From positions 1-39,620 of the IMG/VR virus record IMGVR_UViG_3300045988_070014: a stretch of 39,620 nucleotides of DNA; one strand, given 5' to 3'. Source of the stretch: a virus. The notes below the pieces were generated by a model that did no database searches, was not told where the DNA came from, and saw nothing but the letters and a program-made list of their open reading frames with translations. A program made the position numbers and the translations under genes. Position 1 is the stretch's first letter, and each line of letters opens with the position of its first letter. Of the stretch, positions 2,570 to 35,043 are shown piece by piece.

Positions 2570-3853
2570 TTATTCCCAGTAATCTCTTATAAATGGTATT
2601 TTGTAACCACGAATTGATTTACCATCAACTTTATATGGTTGGTTAGGTATTCCTCTCCTCATAAGCTCATTAGCAAGTGCTTTCTTTTCTTTTATATTAA
2701 GCTTTTCAGCTATTTCTGTAAGCTTGTACACTCTCAAGTCGTTACTTTCCCAGTCTACTTTATCATCTAATATGATTGATATATCTGTTTGAGCATTAAA
2801 TTGTCTATTAATTATTTTTTGTTTCGCTTCTTCCTCTTTGGTCAACCAATCGATACTATAATTAGTCAACCACATATCGTATACTGCGCCCCAAAACTCA
2901 AACATATTGAAATTGTCAAACTCTTCTATATTACAAGATTTAACAGGAATTACCCAAAACCTTCTTGAACCTGTTTCGTCTTTTAAGAAATCTTTTTTAT
3001 TAACATTAGCAATATAACTTGTTAGCCTTGGATATATTTCAGCGACACGACCAAACGGAACTCTATATTCATCAGTTGTATTAGTTAAAAACTGCTTAAT
3101 TTTACCTTGGTCAGCTTTTAAAGTTGTATCTAATTCTGCTAACTCAACAAGAATATATTTAGTATTTTGAATCACGCTATCAGTTTTATCAGGGTCTAAA
3201 GATACTCCATCTTTGAACAAGTCATTAAGCGGCATTAATTTACGTGCAAACGTTGATTTACGGCATCCCTGTTCCCCTTGAAGTGTTAATACTCCATTAG
3301 AACTATAACGGTTTTCTAGCTCATTGTGAGCCATTTTAACAACATTTAGAAGCCATTTATAAAACAAAGTGAAATAATACTCCGCATCTTCTAAAGCATC
3401 ATCTTGAAGCGTTAAACACTTTTCAAACACATCAAGCACTATATCGTGATTATTATTTCTATACTTCTTCAACATATCTACAAAGGGGTTTATTTCTTTT
3501 CTATTAGCTATATCAATTAAATATTCGTCGCATACCGCCCTATTAAGATTTAAACCTTCTTTCACTTGTAAATCATATACAAATGTCAGCATCTCACCTC
3601 TTTTTTTAAACTTTCTGCCTTCCATTTGTAAAGTTAATTCATGAGTTATCTTATTCATAACTGGATTTATTCCATAATGATTTAACAAATATTCTAAATT
3701 TGCCATTGTCTTTATTGGAACTGTTCCGCCATCTTTTAAATACTTAACCTCCGGAAATTGTATAAGAGAAACGTTGCTCTTTTTATTCTTAACATCATTA
3801 ATTGAAAAAACTTTTTTAGTGTTTTGCATTTTAATATCCTCCTTATTTACCAT
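2570..3853 (-). CDS. VapE / D5-like replicative helicase-initiator (virulence-associated protein E family)
   Basis: 427 aa. P-loop-like LTLQGEQGCRKSTFARKL and ...GSRRFWVIPV are typical of the VapE family. The more likely start is ATG at 3829 (MQNTKK) after aaggagg. Confidence 0.8.
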   Translation of the reverse strand: MVNKEDIKMQNTKKVFSINDVKNKKSNVSLIQFPEVKYLKDGGTVPIKTMANLEYLLNHYGINPVMNKITHELTLQMEGRKFKKRGEMLTFVYDLQVKEGLNLNRAVCDEYLIDIANRKEINPFVDMLKKYRNNNHDIVLDVFEKCLTLQDDALEDAEYYFTLFYKWLLNVVKMAHNELENRYSSNGVLTLQGEQGCRKSTFARKLMPLNDLFKDGVSLDPDKTDSVIQNTKYILVELAELDTTLKADQGKIKQFLTNTTDEYRVPFGRVAEIYPRLTSYIANVNKKDFLKDETGSRRFWVIPVKSCNIEEFDNFNMFEFWGAVYDMWLTNYSIDWLTKEEEAKQKIINRQFNAQTDISIILDDKVDWESNDLRVYKLTEIAEKLNIKEKKALANELMRRGIPNQPYKVDGKSIRGYKIPFIRDYWE

Positions 3854-31585: not shown

Positions 31586-31613
31586 TAAAAAAAAGAGAGG
31601 AATTTCCCTCTCT
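31586..31613 (-). terminator. Rho-independent terminator after the tape measure gene
   Basis: Minus strand AGAGAGG-gaaauu-CCUCUCU followed by UUUUUUUUAU. It overlaps the TMP stop. Confidence 0.8.
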
Positions 31614-33295
31614 TATCTAAACGCCAAAGAAGTCATACGAGAATATTCATCAAATTCACTCTGATGCGGTGCTAAGGTTCTCATCATTTCCTTGCCATCA
31701 ATATAAAATTCTACTGGTCTGTTTGCTAAGCTTTTAATCCAATTTTCTAATTTATCTAACGGTATAACCGCTTCCGCTTGGTTTCCTCTGCCTTTGTAAC
31801 TATCTCCAGCAACATATCCGCCCATAAACGTCGGTTGTGTTACTATACCACCATTGTATAAGTATGGTACTTTAGGAAGATTTACCCCGAAGTGTTTACC
31901 TCCAACCATAGGAATCCAATCAGGAATAGTTACACTTATGCTATTTAGTCCACTTATAGCACTATTAACAAGCCCTATAACTCCATTAAGAGGTGCTTTT
32001 ATAACAGACACTAAACCACTCATTATATTGCCAAATATATCTTTGACCCCTTGCCATGCTCTACTCCAATTTCCCGTAAAAGTTCCAGCAACAAAATCAA
32101 TTATTCCGTTAAATATTCCTTTAATATCTGTCCAAATATTAGAAACATTTCTGAAGAAAGAGTTCATTATATCTCCAAAACCTCCAAAACTTTCTGACCA
32201 ATCTATAGTAAATATACCTTGCAACCAGTCGTCAAATCCTTTGAATGCATCTTTTATATTTTGCCACTTACCATCAACAAATTGTCCAAATCCTATAAAC
32301 GTATTTTTTAAGGAATCAAAAGCTAACTGCCAATCTCCAGTAAATAAACCTTTAAAGAAGTTTAAAAAGTTTATAAATGTATTCTTAGCAAATTCCCAAC
32401 CTAATCTAATATCTTCTAAGAAAAAGTCTAATATACTTCCTAAGAATCCAAATCTTTCTGACCAATCTGTAGCAAAAACATTAGTAATCCATTCTAAGAA
32501 CGAAGAAGCTATTTCTTTCACATTATCCCATAGGTTTATCCAAAAGTTTCTAAATCCTTCCGAAGTATTCCACAGGTATATAAACGCACCCGCTAAAGCA
32601 CCTACAAGCCCTATGACTATCCCTATTGGATTTGCCATAAAAACCGCATTTAATATTGCCATAGCACCACTAAAACTCTTTACCATAGTTAAAGCAGTAA
32701 ATAAAGGTTTTACAAATGCAATTATACCGCTTACAATAGCATAGCCCTTTATAGCCCCTAAATAACCTACTATAACACTTAACGCTAATCCTATCTTCTC
32801 TATAGTACCGTCTAATTTACCCTCCTGTAAAGCCTTAACTAATTTACTTATATTATCAGTAACCCATTTTATAACTTCTTTAAATATAGGGAAAACCTTC
32901 TCCGACATTTCAACCCCCAAACCTTCTAAAGCTGAACCCAACTCTGTCAAACGCCCTTTTAAGTTATCATTCATAGTTTTAGCCATCTCTTCTGCCGCAC
33001 CTTGAGAATTGGCAATTTTATCACTTAACTCGTCAAACCTCTCCCCACTATTAGCAAGTAAAGCGTTAGCACTCTTTAAGTCAACTTTGTTAAATAATTC
33101 GCTTAGAACTTTAGTTCTTTCTTGTTCTGTCATAGTCCCAAGTATTTTATTTAAATCTTTAAATATTTCATTTGTACCCCTCATATTACCGCTTGCGTCA
33201 TAAACTTCTAAACCTAATTTTTTCATAAGTTTAGCCGCTTTATCAGTCGGAGAACCTAAAGAAAGTATAATATTTCTTAATGCAGTTCCACCTTC
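31613..33295 (-). CDS. Tape measure protein, exon 2 (560 aa)
   Basis: Begins EGGTALRNIILSLGSPTDKA, then TM helices and W/F-periodic repeats typical of TMPs. In frame with exon 1 after the intron is removed. Confidence 0.85.
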   Translation of the reverse strand, partial: EGGTALRNIILSLGSPTDKAAKLMKKLGLEVYDASGNMRGTNEIFKDLNKILGTMTEQERTKVLSELFNKVDLKSANALLANSGERFDELSDKIANSQGAAEEMAKTMNDNLKGRLTELGSALEGLGVEMSEKVFPIFKEVIKWVTDNISKLVKALQEGKLDGTIEKIGLALSVIVGYLGAIKGYAIVSGIIAFVKPLFTALTMVKSFSGAMAILNAVFMANPIGIVIGLVGALAGAFIYLWNTSEGFRNFWINLWDNVKEIASSFLEWITNVFATDWSERFGFLGSILDFFLEDIRLGWEFAKNTFINFLNFFKGLFTGDWQLAFDSLKNTFIGFGQFVDGKWQNIKDAFKGFDDWLQGIFTIDWSESFGGFGDIMNSFFRNVSNIWTDIKGIFNGIIDFVAGTFTGNWSRAWQGVKDIFGNIMSGLVSVIKAPLNGVIGLVNSAISGLNSISVTIPDWIPMVGGKHFGVNLPKVPYLYNGGIVTQPTFMGGYVAGDSYKGRGNQAEAVIPLDKLENWIKSLANRPVEFYIDGKEMMRTLAPHQSEFDEYSRMTSLAFR

Positions 33296-34383
33296 CATTT
33301 TGTTATCGTAAAGGCTCTTTATCCTCTACTTCTATATGTTTCCATATAGTTCAGACTATATCTTCACCCTTAACTTAATATTAGGGTGTTCGGCACTCGT
33401 GTTCGTATTATTGTTTGTCATAACTCAACGATTAGTCGTTACACCTTCTATTTACTTTTATTGACTTTCAATAGCTTGGCTCGGTATTGCCATATTATAC
33501 TCTTCAAATTTTTCTTTAACCTTATCTATTATTTTATTTTTATAATCCTTTATATCTGTTCTTACAAATTTAATTCTTATTAAAGGTATATTATTTCTTT
33601 TACAAAATTCATTTTTTATTTTATCATTAGTTTTAGTTTTTTTGAAATTTTCTTCATCATCATTAAAAGCGAATTTATTACTAAAATGTTGCGAGCCATC
33701 ATACTCCATTAAACATACCAAATCTTTTTCTTCATTAAATATAGCGAAATCAAACGGTAAAGATCTTTTATTTCTGCATTCTTTTATTCTATATTGTTCT
33801 TCAAAAACAAATTTAGAAAGTGTTAAAAATTCCCTTATAACTTCTTCTCCTTTTGACCTATAACAATGAGGACATCTTGTGCCTTTTATAAAATCGTAAG
33901 GAGTTGGATAAAATTCTTTACCACATTTAAGATGTTTAATAACTATAGGCTTCTTACTTCTACTATAATTACTTAAACAAAGGTAACCTTCTTTTTCACA
34001 AATTTCTTCTATTATTTTCTTTTTTTCTTCGGATTTCCCTTGTTTTTTTGAATTACTTTCTGCACTTCTCAAATATCTTTCATTCGGACATCTTTGTCCA
34101 TTTAAAAACGCTTTCCTTGACATTTTAAATATATTTCCACAAATATTGTGTTTCAACAACATAGGTGTTGAATTGTTTTTATATGTCATTTCCAAAACTT
34201 CGTATTCATCACCTACAACATTTTTCACTTCTTGCTTGAAAATTTCAATTGTTATTTTCATAATATCACCTCTTGATGATATTATACCGCTCTTTATTCC
34301 GTTTTGTAAAGTATAACTTAGGTTTTTACCGAATTCACCGAATTTTTATTCATAGATATTACTATCTAAGCGACCAAAAGTTT
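33296..34383 (-). mobile_element. Group I intron (IA-like) with an internal homing-endonuclease ORF
   Basis: U precedes the 5' splice site and G ends the intron. R-like GUAACGACUAAUCG (33429-33442) and S-like AAGAUAUAGUCU (33353-33364) form P7. P8 is 33365-33388; GNRA-capped hairpins lie at 34353-34368 and 33332-33349. Confidence 0.85.
33458..34261 (-). CDS. Intron-encoded homing endonuclease (Vsr/PD-(D/E)xK-like nuclease plus two zinc-ribbon modules)
   Basis: 267 aa. Duplicated KH.(I/K)CG..F....F..G.RCP modules. C-terminal SLPFDFAIF...LMEYDGSQHF...NDKIKNEFC...IPLIRI is colinear with the Vsr-type PD..(F/I)(V/E)(Y)DG..H core. Confidence 0.7.
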   Translation of the reverse strand: MKITIEIFKQEVKNVVGDEYEVLEMTYKNNSTPMLLKHNICGNIFKMSRKAFLNGQRCPNERYLRSAESNSKKQGKSEEKKKIIEEICEKEGYLCLSNYSRSKKPIVIKHLKCGKEFYPTPYDFIKGTRCPHCYRSKGEEVIREFLTLSKFVFEEQYRIKECRNKRSLPFDFAIFNEEKDLVCLMEYDGSQHFSNKFAFNDDEENFKKTKTNDKIKNEFCKRNNIPLIRIKFVRTDIKDYKNKIIDKVKEKFEEYNMAIPSQAIESQ

Positions 34384-35043
34384 AGCCCCTTTTATACCTG
34401 CATCCGCCAAAATTCCAAGTTGTGTATTTAATTCTACTGTTCCACCTTTAAGAGATTTCGCAGTTCCTCCAACCGTTAGGATAGCTTCCCCTAATTGTGC
34501 TACATTTGTATTTGCTTTCTGTGAAGTTTTAGCCATTTGGTCGGTGAATCCTTCAAGTTGGTCTGTTTCTATTCCTAAAGCCGACATAGAATCCGTAACT
34601 AAGTCAGAAGCATAGGCAAGGTCAATTCCTCCCGCCGCTGCCAAGTTAAGAACTTTAGGTAATGCACTTATAGCTTTATCTGTATCATATCCTGCAAGTG
34701 CCAAGTAGTTCAACGCTTCAGCTGATTGTGAAGCACTATACTTAGTTGTAGCTCCCATTTGTTTGGCTGCATCCGAAAGTTTTTTAAAGTTAGAATCAGA
34801 AGCATCCCCAACTATACCCATTGTTGCGGCTACTTGATCCATACTTGCTTCAAAATCCATACCAACTTTCGTTGCTGCACCCGCTGCAACTCCTAGACCT
34901 CCAGCTATAACTGCACCAGCAACTTTAGTAGCTTTTCCCATTCTACTCGCAACACTTTCAGTTTTCTTTCCACTTTCATCTATTTTACTATTATAGTTCT
35001 TATTGTCAATGCTTATTTCAGCCATTAAAGTGAATAAATTCAT
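34384..35043 (-). CDS. Tape measure protein, exon 1 (220 aa)
   Basis: Ends ...NVAQLGEAILTVGG...QLGILADAGIKGA, the TP901-1-type TMP core. The unspliced frame runs 5 more codons to a stop at 34366. Confidence 0.85.

Follow-up and report, generated by a model that had tools for sequence, protein, structure and literature searches.

Why is the tape measure protein (TMP) gene of some siphophages found in two pieces? In the Clostridium perfringens phages phiCP13O and phiCP34O the TMP is encoded by two open reading frames (ORFs), and the origin of this arrangement "remains unknown" (Oakley et al., 2011; PMC3118219). The same question is raised by the IMG/VR virus record IMGVR_UViG_3300045988_070014, of which positions 1 to 39,620 were analyzed (referred to below as the window), and for which an initial annotation had proposed that the TMP gene is interrupted at 33296-34383 by a group I intron. 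The comparisons described here make it very probable that this segment is a mobile group I intron, probably of subgroup IA and Twort-like (IA2-like), situated in the core domain of a TP901-type TMP. The proposal is supported by the presence and absence of the insert among phages, the Rfam score of a sibling copy, covariation, the nucleotides at the splice sites and the homology of the 3′ end.

All genes in this region lie on the minus strand, in the order TMP piece 1, a 267-residue ORF (34261-33458) and a 561-residue frame. The first TMP frame (34366 to 35043) encodes 225 residues with the C-terminus ...QLGILADAGIKGAKLLVA and has its stop codon at 34366-34368, and the second (31613 to 33298) encodes 561 residues starting MEGGTALRN; every coordinate originally given for the interrupted frame and its downstream resumption agrees with the ORF list. 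Piece 1 matches positions 1-133 of the Pfam profile PhageMin_Tail (PF10145; E 3e-28) and the exon-2 piece matches positions 133-200 (E 2e-16), and hence one PhageMin_Tail domain is cut in two by the insert, at profile position 133. The PHROG tape-measure families agree with the identification of the split frames as a TMP.

The exact extent of the insert is given by C. perfringens siphophages that are 94% identical to the TMP region of the window by BLAST. In phiCP26F, phiCP9O, phiCP39-O and XP41-N3, 69% of a 3,501-nucleotide (nt) query is matched in 2,413 of their own bases, which is 1,088 nt short, and the gap in the phiCP26F match lies between query positions 716 and 1805, such that the window carries exactly 1,088 additional bases. 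The TMP is continuous in the intron-free comparison alleles of phiCP26F, phiCP39-O, XP41-N3 and CPD1, and the three of these with full-length matches encode 780 residues. As had been proposed, and as is borne out by intron-free phiCP26F, excising 34383 to 33296 joins GCT/GAA (the slash marks the junction, here and below) and gives a 780-residue TMP (220 + 560 codons) equal in length to that of phiCP26F. The joined protein reads ...GIKGAEGGTALRN... and the phiCP26F TMP reads ...GIKGAEGGTALRN... at the same stretch; at the nucleotide level the joined exons read ...GGGGCU/GAAGGUGG... and the intron-free site in phiCP26F and phiCP39-O is GGTATAAAAGGYGCRGARGGAGGAAC. The parts of the gene are as follows.

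34384 to 35043, minus strand: TMP exon 1, 220 codons ending ...GGG GCU, collinear with the phiCP26F TMP to this base.
33296 to 34383, minus strand: group I intron, 1,088 nt, starting AAACUUUUGGUC and ending ...AACAAAAUG, with its terminal G at 33296.
31613 to 33295, minus strand: TMP exon 2, 560 codons and stop, starting GAA GGU GGA (EGGTALRN...), collinear with phiCP26F.

From the DNA comparison alone the insert boundary is ambiguous by 1 nt, and of the possible boundaries only the one chosen in the initial annotation leaves exon 1 ending in U and the insert ending in G. The apparent start codon of exon 2, the ATG at 33296-33298, is the final 3 nt of the intron. It had been claimed that the junction falls within the most conserved motif of the TMP, and this is roughly right but not uniquely so: two 15-residue windows share the highest conservation across five diverged intron-bearing TMPs (14 of 15 positions identical in each), and the junction is in one of them. 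The same insert is carried by phiCP13O, phiCP34O and vB_CpeS-17DYC, and a 447-nt version of it by CPQ4. Five phages have the intron (four with the ORF and CPQ4 with a remnant of it) versus at least four collinear ones that do not.

Ribozyme architecture and covariation

The insert can be drawn as a group I ribozyme with helices P1 to P9.1, in which the ORF occupies the loop of P5 (L5). Its elements, with differences seen in the related copy on contig L008, are listed in 5′ to 3′ order as far as their long-range pairing allows.

34372 to 34387, minus strand: P1, with UUGGUC paired to GGCU of the exon and the following AA of the intron; U34384·G34375 is the pair at the splice site.
34376-34380 (CUUUU) with exon 2 GAAGG at 33291-33295, minus strand: P10, directly 5′ of the P1 guide on the same strand.
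34353 to 34368, minus strand: P2 hairpin, UAGAUA-GUAA-UAUCUA, with the stop UAG of the exon-1 frame (34366-34368) in its 5′ strand; a G-C pair is A-U in L008.
34337 to 34342 (UUCGGU) with 33389-33394 (GCCGAA), minus strand: P3, the partners 943 nt apart.
34328-34332 (UCGGU) with 33481-33485 (ACCGA), minus strand: P4, invariant in the family.
34305 to 34332, minus strand: 5′ strand of P4, J4/5 and 5′ strand of P5/P5a (the last at 34305-34322); CC/GG in P5 is UC/GA in L008.
33443 to 33508, minus strand: P5a′-P5′-J5/4-P4′ (P4′ at 33481-33485) and P6/P6a (33443-33480).
A33439, bulged C33438 and GACUA at 33433-33437, minus strand: 5′ strand of P7; GACUA/UAGUC is invariant.
33395-33432, minus strand: P7.1/P7.2 extension, 38 nt, an insertion between P7 and P3′ in the Rfam alignment.
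33353 to 33394, minus strand: P3′ (33389-33394), P8 hairpin (33365-33388), J8/7 and P7′, within the high-confidence Rfam alignment.
33332-33349, minus strand: P9, CUAUAUG-GAAA-CAUAUAG.
33308-33329, minus strand: P9.1, GUAGAGG...CCUUUAC, with the conserved loop AUAAAGAG.
33296 to 33349, minus strand: P9, P9.1 and the 3′ tail to G33296, homologous to Twort-type intron 3′ ends.

The group I core, P3-P4-P5-P6 together with P7-P3′-P8-P7′ and the P3/P7 pseudoknot, is present with its helices in the expected order and spacing, and all of the helices first named (P1, P2, P3, P7, P8 and P9) fit the comparative model. The P7′ region reads GAAGAUAUAGUCU, where UAGUCU is 33353-33358, and GATATAGTC occurs only once in the window, at P7′. 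The subgroup is probably IA, and within it IA2, because of the insertion between P7 and P3′ and the kinship to Twort-type introns; the label IA2 refers to that similarity.

The splice sites have the nucleotides of group I introns. Every lineage compared starts after U, as exon 1 was first said to end, and finishes in G, and P1 and P10 adjoin on one guide sequence; the U·G pair in P1, the terminal G and P10 are held in all eight lineages, as are all six pairs of P1 (8/8). At the junction, the intron-bearing alleles all read GGG GCU/GAA GGY versus GGY GCR/GAR GGA in the four intron-free C. perfringens alleles, and the synonymous differences between the two sets fall exactly on the bases that pair with the guide. 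The intron-type codons are found also in L008 and L011, lineages that were located through their protein rather than through a junction pattern.

Covariation was measured on an alignment of eight distinct mini-introns, from which the variable L5 insert was cut out by hand and in which 9 and 8 flanking exon bases were kept. Under the P1-P9.1 model 96.0% of the cells are paired, versus 34-39% in controls that had the 3′ partners slid one to three columns and a mean of 87.6% in shuffled alignments. Changes on both sides of a pair are seen in 18 of the 59 pairs, versus 1-5 in the slid controls and 6.4 ± 1.8 in shuffles, none of 500 of which reached 18. The long-range helix P3 occurs in four versions (UUCGGU/GCCGAA, UUUGGU/GCCAAA, UUGGGU/GCCCAA and UUUAGU/GCUAAA), P7 has an additional pair that changes from A-U to G-C across the bulged nucleotide, and the base of P7.1, UCG/CGA, covaries with AUA/UAU. 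Compensatory changes are also found at four pairs in P6 and P6a, two in P8 (CACCCU/AGGGUG) and seven in P9 plus P9.1, and in all they support P2, P3, P5, P6, P6a, P7, P7.1, P8, P9 and P9.1. When RNAalifold was applied blind to the drawn model it predicted P1, P2, P3, P4, P5, P6, P6a, the base of P7.1, P8, P9 and P9.1, with compensatory changes in 22 of its 64 predicted pairs; this method cannot draw the P7 pseudoknot. As judged from these comparisons, the ribozyme is under obvious selection.

The intron family and its nuclease gene

A BLAST search of phage genomes with the 5′ half of the intron found C. perfringens phages only, and for this reason more diverged copies were sought through homologs of the nuclease encoded in the insert and through junction patterns. 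Nuclease homologs 85%, 69% and 61% identical to that of the window, in contigs L007, L008 and L011, proved to be at the same TMP site, each with PhageMin_Tail exons 1 and 2 on either side, exon 1 ending GGTATAAAAGGGGCT, the intron ending in G and exon 2 starting GAAGGNGGAAC. Contig L098, which was located through the core motif, holds an intron 90% identical to that of the window over its first 70 nt. Scanning viral, genome and metagenome contigs with the junction pattern GGGGCTRAAYTTTTGGTCGC gave about 25 more copies, including three genome assemblies (labeled Clostridia, Firmicutes and Clostridium) and 15 metagenome contigs. Three of the six junction hits among genome contigs and five of the 20 among metagenome contigs were chance matches in GC-rich genomes and were discarded.

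The copies are 274-345 nt without an ORF, 447 nt with a remnant and 1,086-1,282 nt with the ORF, and the ORF-less copies, the ORF-bearing copies and the remnant all occupy one site. The intron family is site-specific and is found in C. perfringens phages and in Clostridia/Firmicutes contigs, many of them from human-gut samples. The carriers phiCP13O, phiCP34O, CPQ4 and 17DYC are in the databases as phage isolates for which a C. perfringens host is named; an intron in a gene that is expected to be needed for the tail assembly of isolated phages is an indirect argument that it splices. Nucleotides 1-70 of the intron (34314-34383, P1-P5) are 86-90% identical in all lineages. The 3′ halves (33296-33508 in the window) form two types with no more than about 68% identity between them, and one of these is shared by L008 and the window (86.5%). 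Either different cores would have become adapted to a single site, or introns would have recombined.

Two further features belong to the ORF in L5.

33458 to 34261, minus strand: candidate homing endonuclease gene, 804 nt, 267 residues, in which a Vsr-like PD-(D/E)XK domain (DUF2726) comes after two zinc-ribbon repeats.
34261 to 34310, minus strand: nuclease expression signals, namely the promoter-like TTTACA-18-TATAAT (34310 to 34281), the Shine-Dalgarno sequence GAGGUG (34267-34272) and the ATG from 34261.

The ORF was first described as looped out of the ribozyme, which is correct in that it is in the P5/P5a loop, but its last 17 codons including the stop (33458-33508, 51 nt) double as P5a′, P5′, J5/4, P4′ and the 5′ part of P6/P6a. 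The loop is closed by P5a, in which CCUAAGUUAUACUUUACAAA (34322-34305) pairs with UUUGAAGAGUAUAAUAUGG (33508-33490) and so extends P5. The duplex is calculated at -13.0 kcal/mol versus -5.7 ± 2.1 for shuffles, and equivalent stems are formed from different sequence in L008 (-13.5) and L011 (-18.1). The promoter-like site is the best match in the region (11 of 12 positions), which is weak evidence alone in DNA this AT-rich; L007, L008 and L011 have kept both TATAAT and GAGGTG.

The protein matches Pfam DUF2726 (E 5e-9, 36.4 bits versus a cut-off of 24.7), with a weak match to a treble-clef zinc finger, and its PHROG matches (559, 9084 and 7140) are labeled as homing, intron-encoded or HNH endonucleases. 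There are 312 homologs at E ≤ 1e-5, mostly of about 330 residues, in which DUF4379/DUF723 zinc-ribbon repeats are combined with DUF2726, and the family is present in 466 phage records under the usual label of HNH endonuclease or hypothetical protein. Across 26 nuclease sequences E139, D171, E186, H192, D213, K216 and the ribbon cysteines and histidines are invariant. An AlphaFold (AF2) model had a mean confidence (pLDDT) of 86.5, and with it Foldseek gave the restriction enzyme BstEII as the best match (E 9.8e-4), along with Vsr (1cw0) at a probability of 0.94 and a target-normalized TM score of 0.50. From sequence and model together, the protein would have a Vsr-like PD-(D/E)XK domain with conserved E, D, H and D residues. 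In sequence and profile searches against solved structures there was no significant match, and I-Bth0305I (3R3P) was not found; nor was 3R3P among the top 50 Foldseek matches of the model, and a search of NCBIfam gave no match. The protein is best described as a candidate homing endonuclease of Vsr-like type whose DNA-binding part is built differently, and is not a demonstrated member of the EDxHD family. With a seemingly intact nuclease ORF in a peripheral loop, and presence or absence of the insert in collinear genomes, the intron has what is expected of a mobile one. In the phiCP13O (L002:2336-3139) and phiCP34O records the 267-residue nuclease ORF is unannotated, and the annotation of exon 2 begins at an internal ATG, 89 codons late, which gives 473 residues instead of the full exon.

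At least three independent losses of the nuclease ORF have left the ribozyme helices intact. CPQ4 (447 nt) lacks 641 nt of the ORF region, L132 (345 nt) is derived from a 1,162-nt type and L140 (342 nt) from a 1,282-nt type. Repeated loss of the ORF with a retained ribozyme is what a homing intron passing through cycles of gain and loss should show. The CPQ4 deletion begins directly after TTTACAAA and takes out the 5′ portion of the ORF along with the -10 box. A separate observation concerns how the gene may have entered. At L011:2095-2120, and at the same position in L140, the P5 loop contains, just upstream of the promoter-like site of the nuclease, 25 nt that match the end of exon 1 (GCAGATAATGGTATAAAAGG) at 22 positions. 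This may be the footprint of a nuclease gene that entered the intron via a site resembling its target. In the window, exon-like sequence was sought at the ORF insertion point and no convincing copy was found.

From the insert itself, the architecture and covariation of the ribozyme, the one-site family and the nuclease losses, we infer splicing, nuclease activity and a target as follows. The late transcript would fold into the P1-P9.1 ribozyme, and a guanosine bound in P7 would attack after U34384, held in its U·G pair by the guide GGUC. The GAAGG of exon 2 would dock on the adjacent guide CUUUU as P10, and the exons would be ligated after the terminal G33296, giving an mRNA for a single 780-residue TMP (...GIKGA-EGGTALRN...). 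Ribosomes translating unspliced RNA would meet a stop codon, the UAG at intron nt 16-18. The nuclease, produced from its gene in L5, presumably cuts the intron-free TMP alleles of co-infecting phages near GGY GCR/GAR GGA. Repair of the cut by recombination would introduce the intron and, with it, the flanking GGG GCU/GAA GGY bases needed by P1 and P10.

Weighing the alternatives

Several points weigh against a group I intron at this locus. The first is the Rfam result. An RF00028 scan, which had been suggested as a check in the initial annotation, did give a match when targeted to 33150-34500 (1.35 kb), at 33332-33576 with 33.4 bits and E 2e-6, but this is below the curated cut-off of 50 bits, and neither the gathering-threshold scan nor a whole-window E-value scan of Rfam gave a match in the window. 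Second, the sample for covariation is small, eight sequences of about four lineages, and the structure was drawn from the same eight, which favors the model over the slid controls in the percentage of paired cells. Third, most of the copies were found with a pattern that contains the P1 sequence, and the invariance of P1 in them is partly by construction. Fourth, a minimum free energy (MFE) fold of the ORF-less mini-intron of the window has 32 of the 59 model pairs, namely those of P1, P3, P8, P9 and P9.1; P2, P4-P6a and P7 were not recovered by this single-sequence fold of the ORF-less construct. Finally, the nuclease of the window has 267 residues and two zinc-ribbon repeats where most homologs have about 330 residues and more repeats, and its first ribbon has lost the last cysteine (RCPNE instead of RCPxC); the nuclease may be weakened, and the cysteine loss hints at early decay.

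Some of these points have an explanation. The low RF00028 score of the window is due to the 804-nt ORF in L5, which splits the core: P6, P7, P3′, P8, J8/7-P7′ and P9 were aligned with high confidence, and the 5′ half of the model was forced into the ORF. L098, with an ORF-less intron of 280 nt at the identical TMP site, has 78.8 bits and E 1.7e-20 in a targeted scan (cut-off 50). Default Rfam pipelines will overlook an intron family in which a large ORF divides the core. The L098 match (2339-2594) was itself missed by a gathering-mode scan of the 7-kb locus, being seen only when 471 nt were scanned alone, and the 447-nt copy of CPQ4 is absent from the gathering-scan matches to RF00028. The helices P2 and P4-P6 missed by the MFE fold are A/U-rich, and comparative evidence was relied on for them instead.

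A further reading, which is improbable, accepts the intron and makes its splicing a regulated step, in which the ratio of TMP-derived products is set by competition between nuclease translation and splicing. The anatomy of the ORF is what speaks for it: the ORF overlaps P5a′-P5′-P4′-P6 by 51 nt, so that its translation should unfold the ribozyme, and nuclease translation and intron folding should therefore interfere. If this were true, a 225-residue TMP fragment ending KLLVA would be made along with full TMP, and their ratio could affect tail assembly or its timing.

Still less probable is a true fission of the gene, in which a dead intron or another insertion has left two TMP polypeptides, of 225 and 561 residues, that cooperate. 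Two coding sequences (CDSs) are indeed annotated in GenBank for phiCP13O, phiCP34O, CPQ4 and 17DYC, the origin of the arrangement was called unknown by those who described it, who left such a fission open (Oakley et al., 2011; PMC3118219), and in the window exon 2 is preceded by the in-frame ATG 33296-33298. This ATG, however, has no Shine-Dalgarno sequence upstream of it (GAUAACAAAAUG), and other lineages lack it: L008 has CCG in its place, and L011 and L098 have UAG. Moreover, the break is inside a Pfam domain, in one of its best-conserved stretches, and the ribozyme helices are maintained by compensatory changes and survive independent deletions of the ORF.

It is very unlikely that the insert is a free-standing homing endonuclease gene, or other mobile cassette without a ribozyme, whose resemblance to a group I intron is coincidental. 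Free-standing nuclease genes are common in phages, this nuclease family is widespread in them, and the score of the window is under the Rfam cut-off, but ORF-less copies of 274-345 nt are present at the same site, one of them the high-scoring L098, the long-range P3 covaries in four versions, and the 3′ end is homologous to those of proven introns. Other intervening elements are just as improbable, whether an intein, a group II intron or an IStron, in which a group I intron is joined to an insertion sequence element. IStrons are known in Clostridioides difficile and the host here is clostridial, but scans of Rfam, Pfam and PHROG turned up neither a group II RNA nor a transposase or reverse transcriptase, the ORF is a PD-(D/E)XK-type nuclease inside L5 rather than an insertion sequence element appended 3′ of the ribozyme, and an intein is excluded because the exon frame meets a stop after five codons.

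Relationship to known introns and nucleases

A group I intron in a TMP gene is not without precedent, and the question left in the initial annotation, whether one had been described, has a published answer. Two self-splicing introns in late genes of the Lactobacillus delbrueckii phage JCL1032 were reported in 2004 (Riipinen and Alatossava, 2004, as cited in PMC6669764), one of which is listed as "JCL1032 (TMP)" (PMC2504315). The JCL1032 TMP intron is 80% identical to that of the window over 101 nt of P8-P9-P9.1, has an RF00028 score of 59.4 bits and interrupts a CDS that is annotated in GenBank as joined. By the splice sites as read here, it is located about 10 nt upstream of the site in the window, in the same motif, at RG/MDGTRAGTGLRK. 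It differs in having another P1 guide (GGGAU/GUCCC), a length of about 322 nt, no ORF and a host of a different genus, and no similarity between it and the 5′ half of the window intron was detectable by BLAST.

Introns of subgroups IA1 and IA2 were also described at three TMP sites (TMP-IVS1, -IVS2 and -IVS3a/b) in prophages of the Bacillus cereus group (Tourasse and Kolsto, 2008; PMC2504315). As in the family described here, several lineages occupy one site, P1 is more conserved than the core, the nuclease has been lost repeatedly with the structure kept, and TMP-IVS3a/b show the diverged-core pattern (PMC2504315). The hosts differ, however, the TMPs exceed 1,200 residues, and the nucleases, where present, are of the GIY-YIG or H-N-H type rather than Vsr-like. 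In other virion genes, introns are known from Twort, the capsid gene of Tuc2009, and the capsid and tail genes of Cluster J mycobacteriophages.

The 3′ end of the window intron is of a widely shared type, in that its last 75-100 nt are 80-89% identical across Twort-type and JCL1032 TMP introns. With Twort orf142 and introns of Staphylococcus, Listeria and Streptococcus phages the identity is 85-89% over P7′-P9-P9.1 and the 3′ tail, and the Twort-like Staphylococcus introns share the core layout, including the insertion between P7 and P3′. Unlike the intron of the window, the Twort-like introns are in other genes, have unrelated P1-P5 sequences and are mostly ORF-less or encode other nucleases. 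Two further loci were noticed in these comparisons. Staphylococcus phage 110 (L003:2726-3342) has two tandem group I introns (RF00028, 69 and 106 bits) in the gap between a CDS labeled "virion structural protein" and the ORF after it, and both end in the P9 sequence of the window intron. In Arcanobacterium phage TPWB06 (L006, about 2815-3074) the TMP gene seems to be interrupted at another position, between ...STIVNLG and NNMAAQEDE..., by a further group I intron that is not annotated, with a 3′ end (GAAGTAGAGGATAAAAAGCCTTTACGATAACAAAATG) almost identical to that of the window; this candidate did not reach the RF00028 gathering score.

The nuclease resembles I-Bth0305I of the EDxHD family (Taylor et al., 2011; PMC3239194), which is also intron-encoded and has a C-terminal Vsr-like PD-(D/E)XK domain with the set E...D...H...D. 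The N-terminus of I-Bth0305I is of the NUMOD/HTH type, whereas that of the window nuclease consists of zinc-ribbon (DUF4379/DUF723) repeats. Vsr, DUF559 and DUF2726 have been placed in one PD-(D/E)XK group with 1cw0 and 3r3p (Steczkiewicz et al., 2012; PMC3424549).

TMP introns are hence a kind already known, and general knowledge of phage introns is unchanged by this one. In a search of the literature no paper was found that calls the C. perfringens phage TMP case an intron, and what is new is this site-specific family, an answer for phiCP13O and phiCP34O, and a corrected annotation. The question of "fission or fusion" in these two phages would be answered, on the sequence comparisons, by a gene that is interrupted by an intron and not split, and the annotation to be corrected is that of at least phiCP13O, phiCP34O, CPQ4 and vB_CpeS-17DYC, in which the TMP should be a joined CDS. 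With copies in which the nuclease gene is intact, a remnant or missing, the family is a natural data set that is well suited to the study of the gain-and-loss cycle of homing introns and to that of a widespread and uncharacterized Vsr-like nuclease type with zinc-ribbon repeats.

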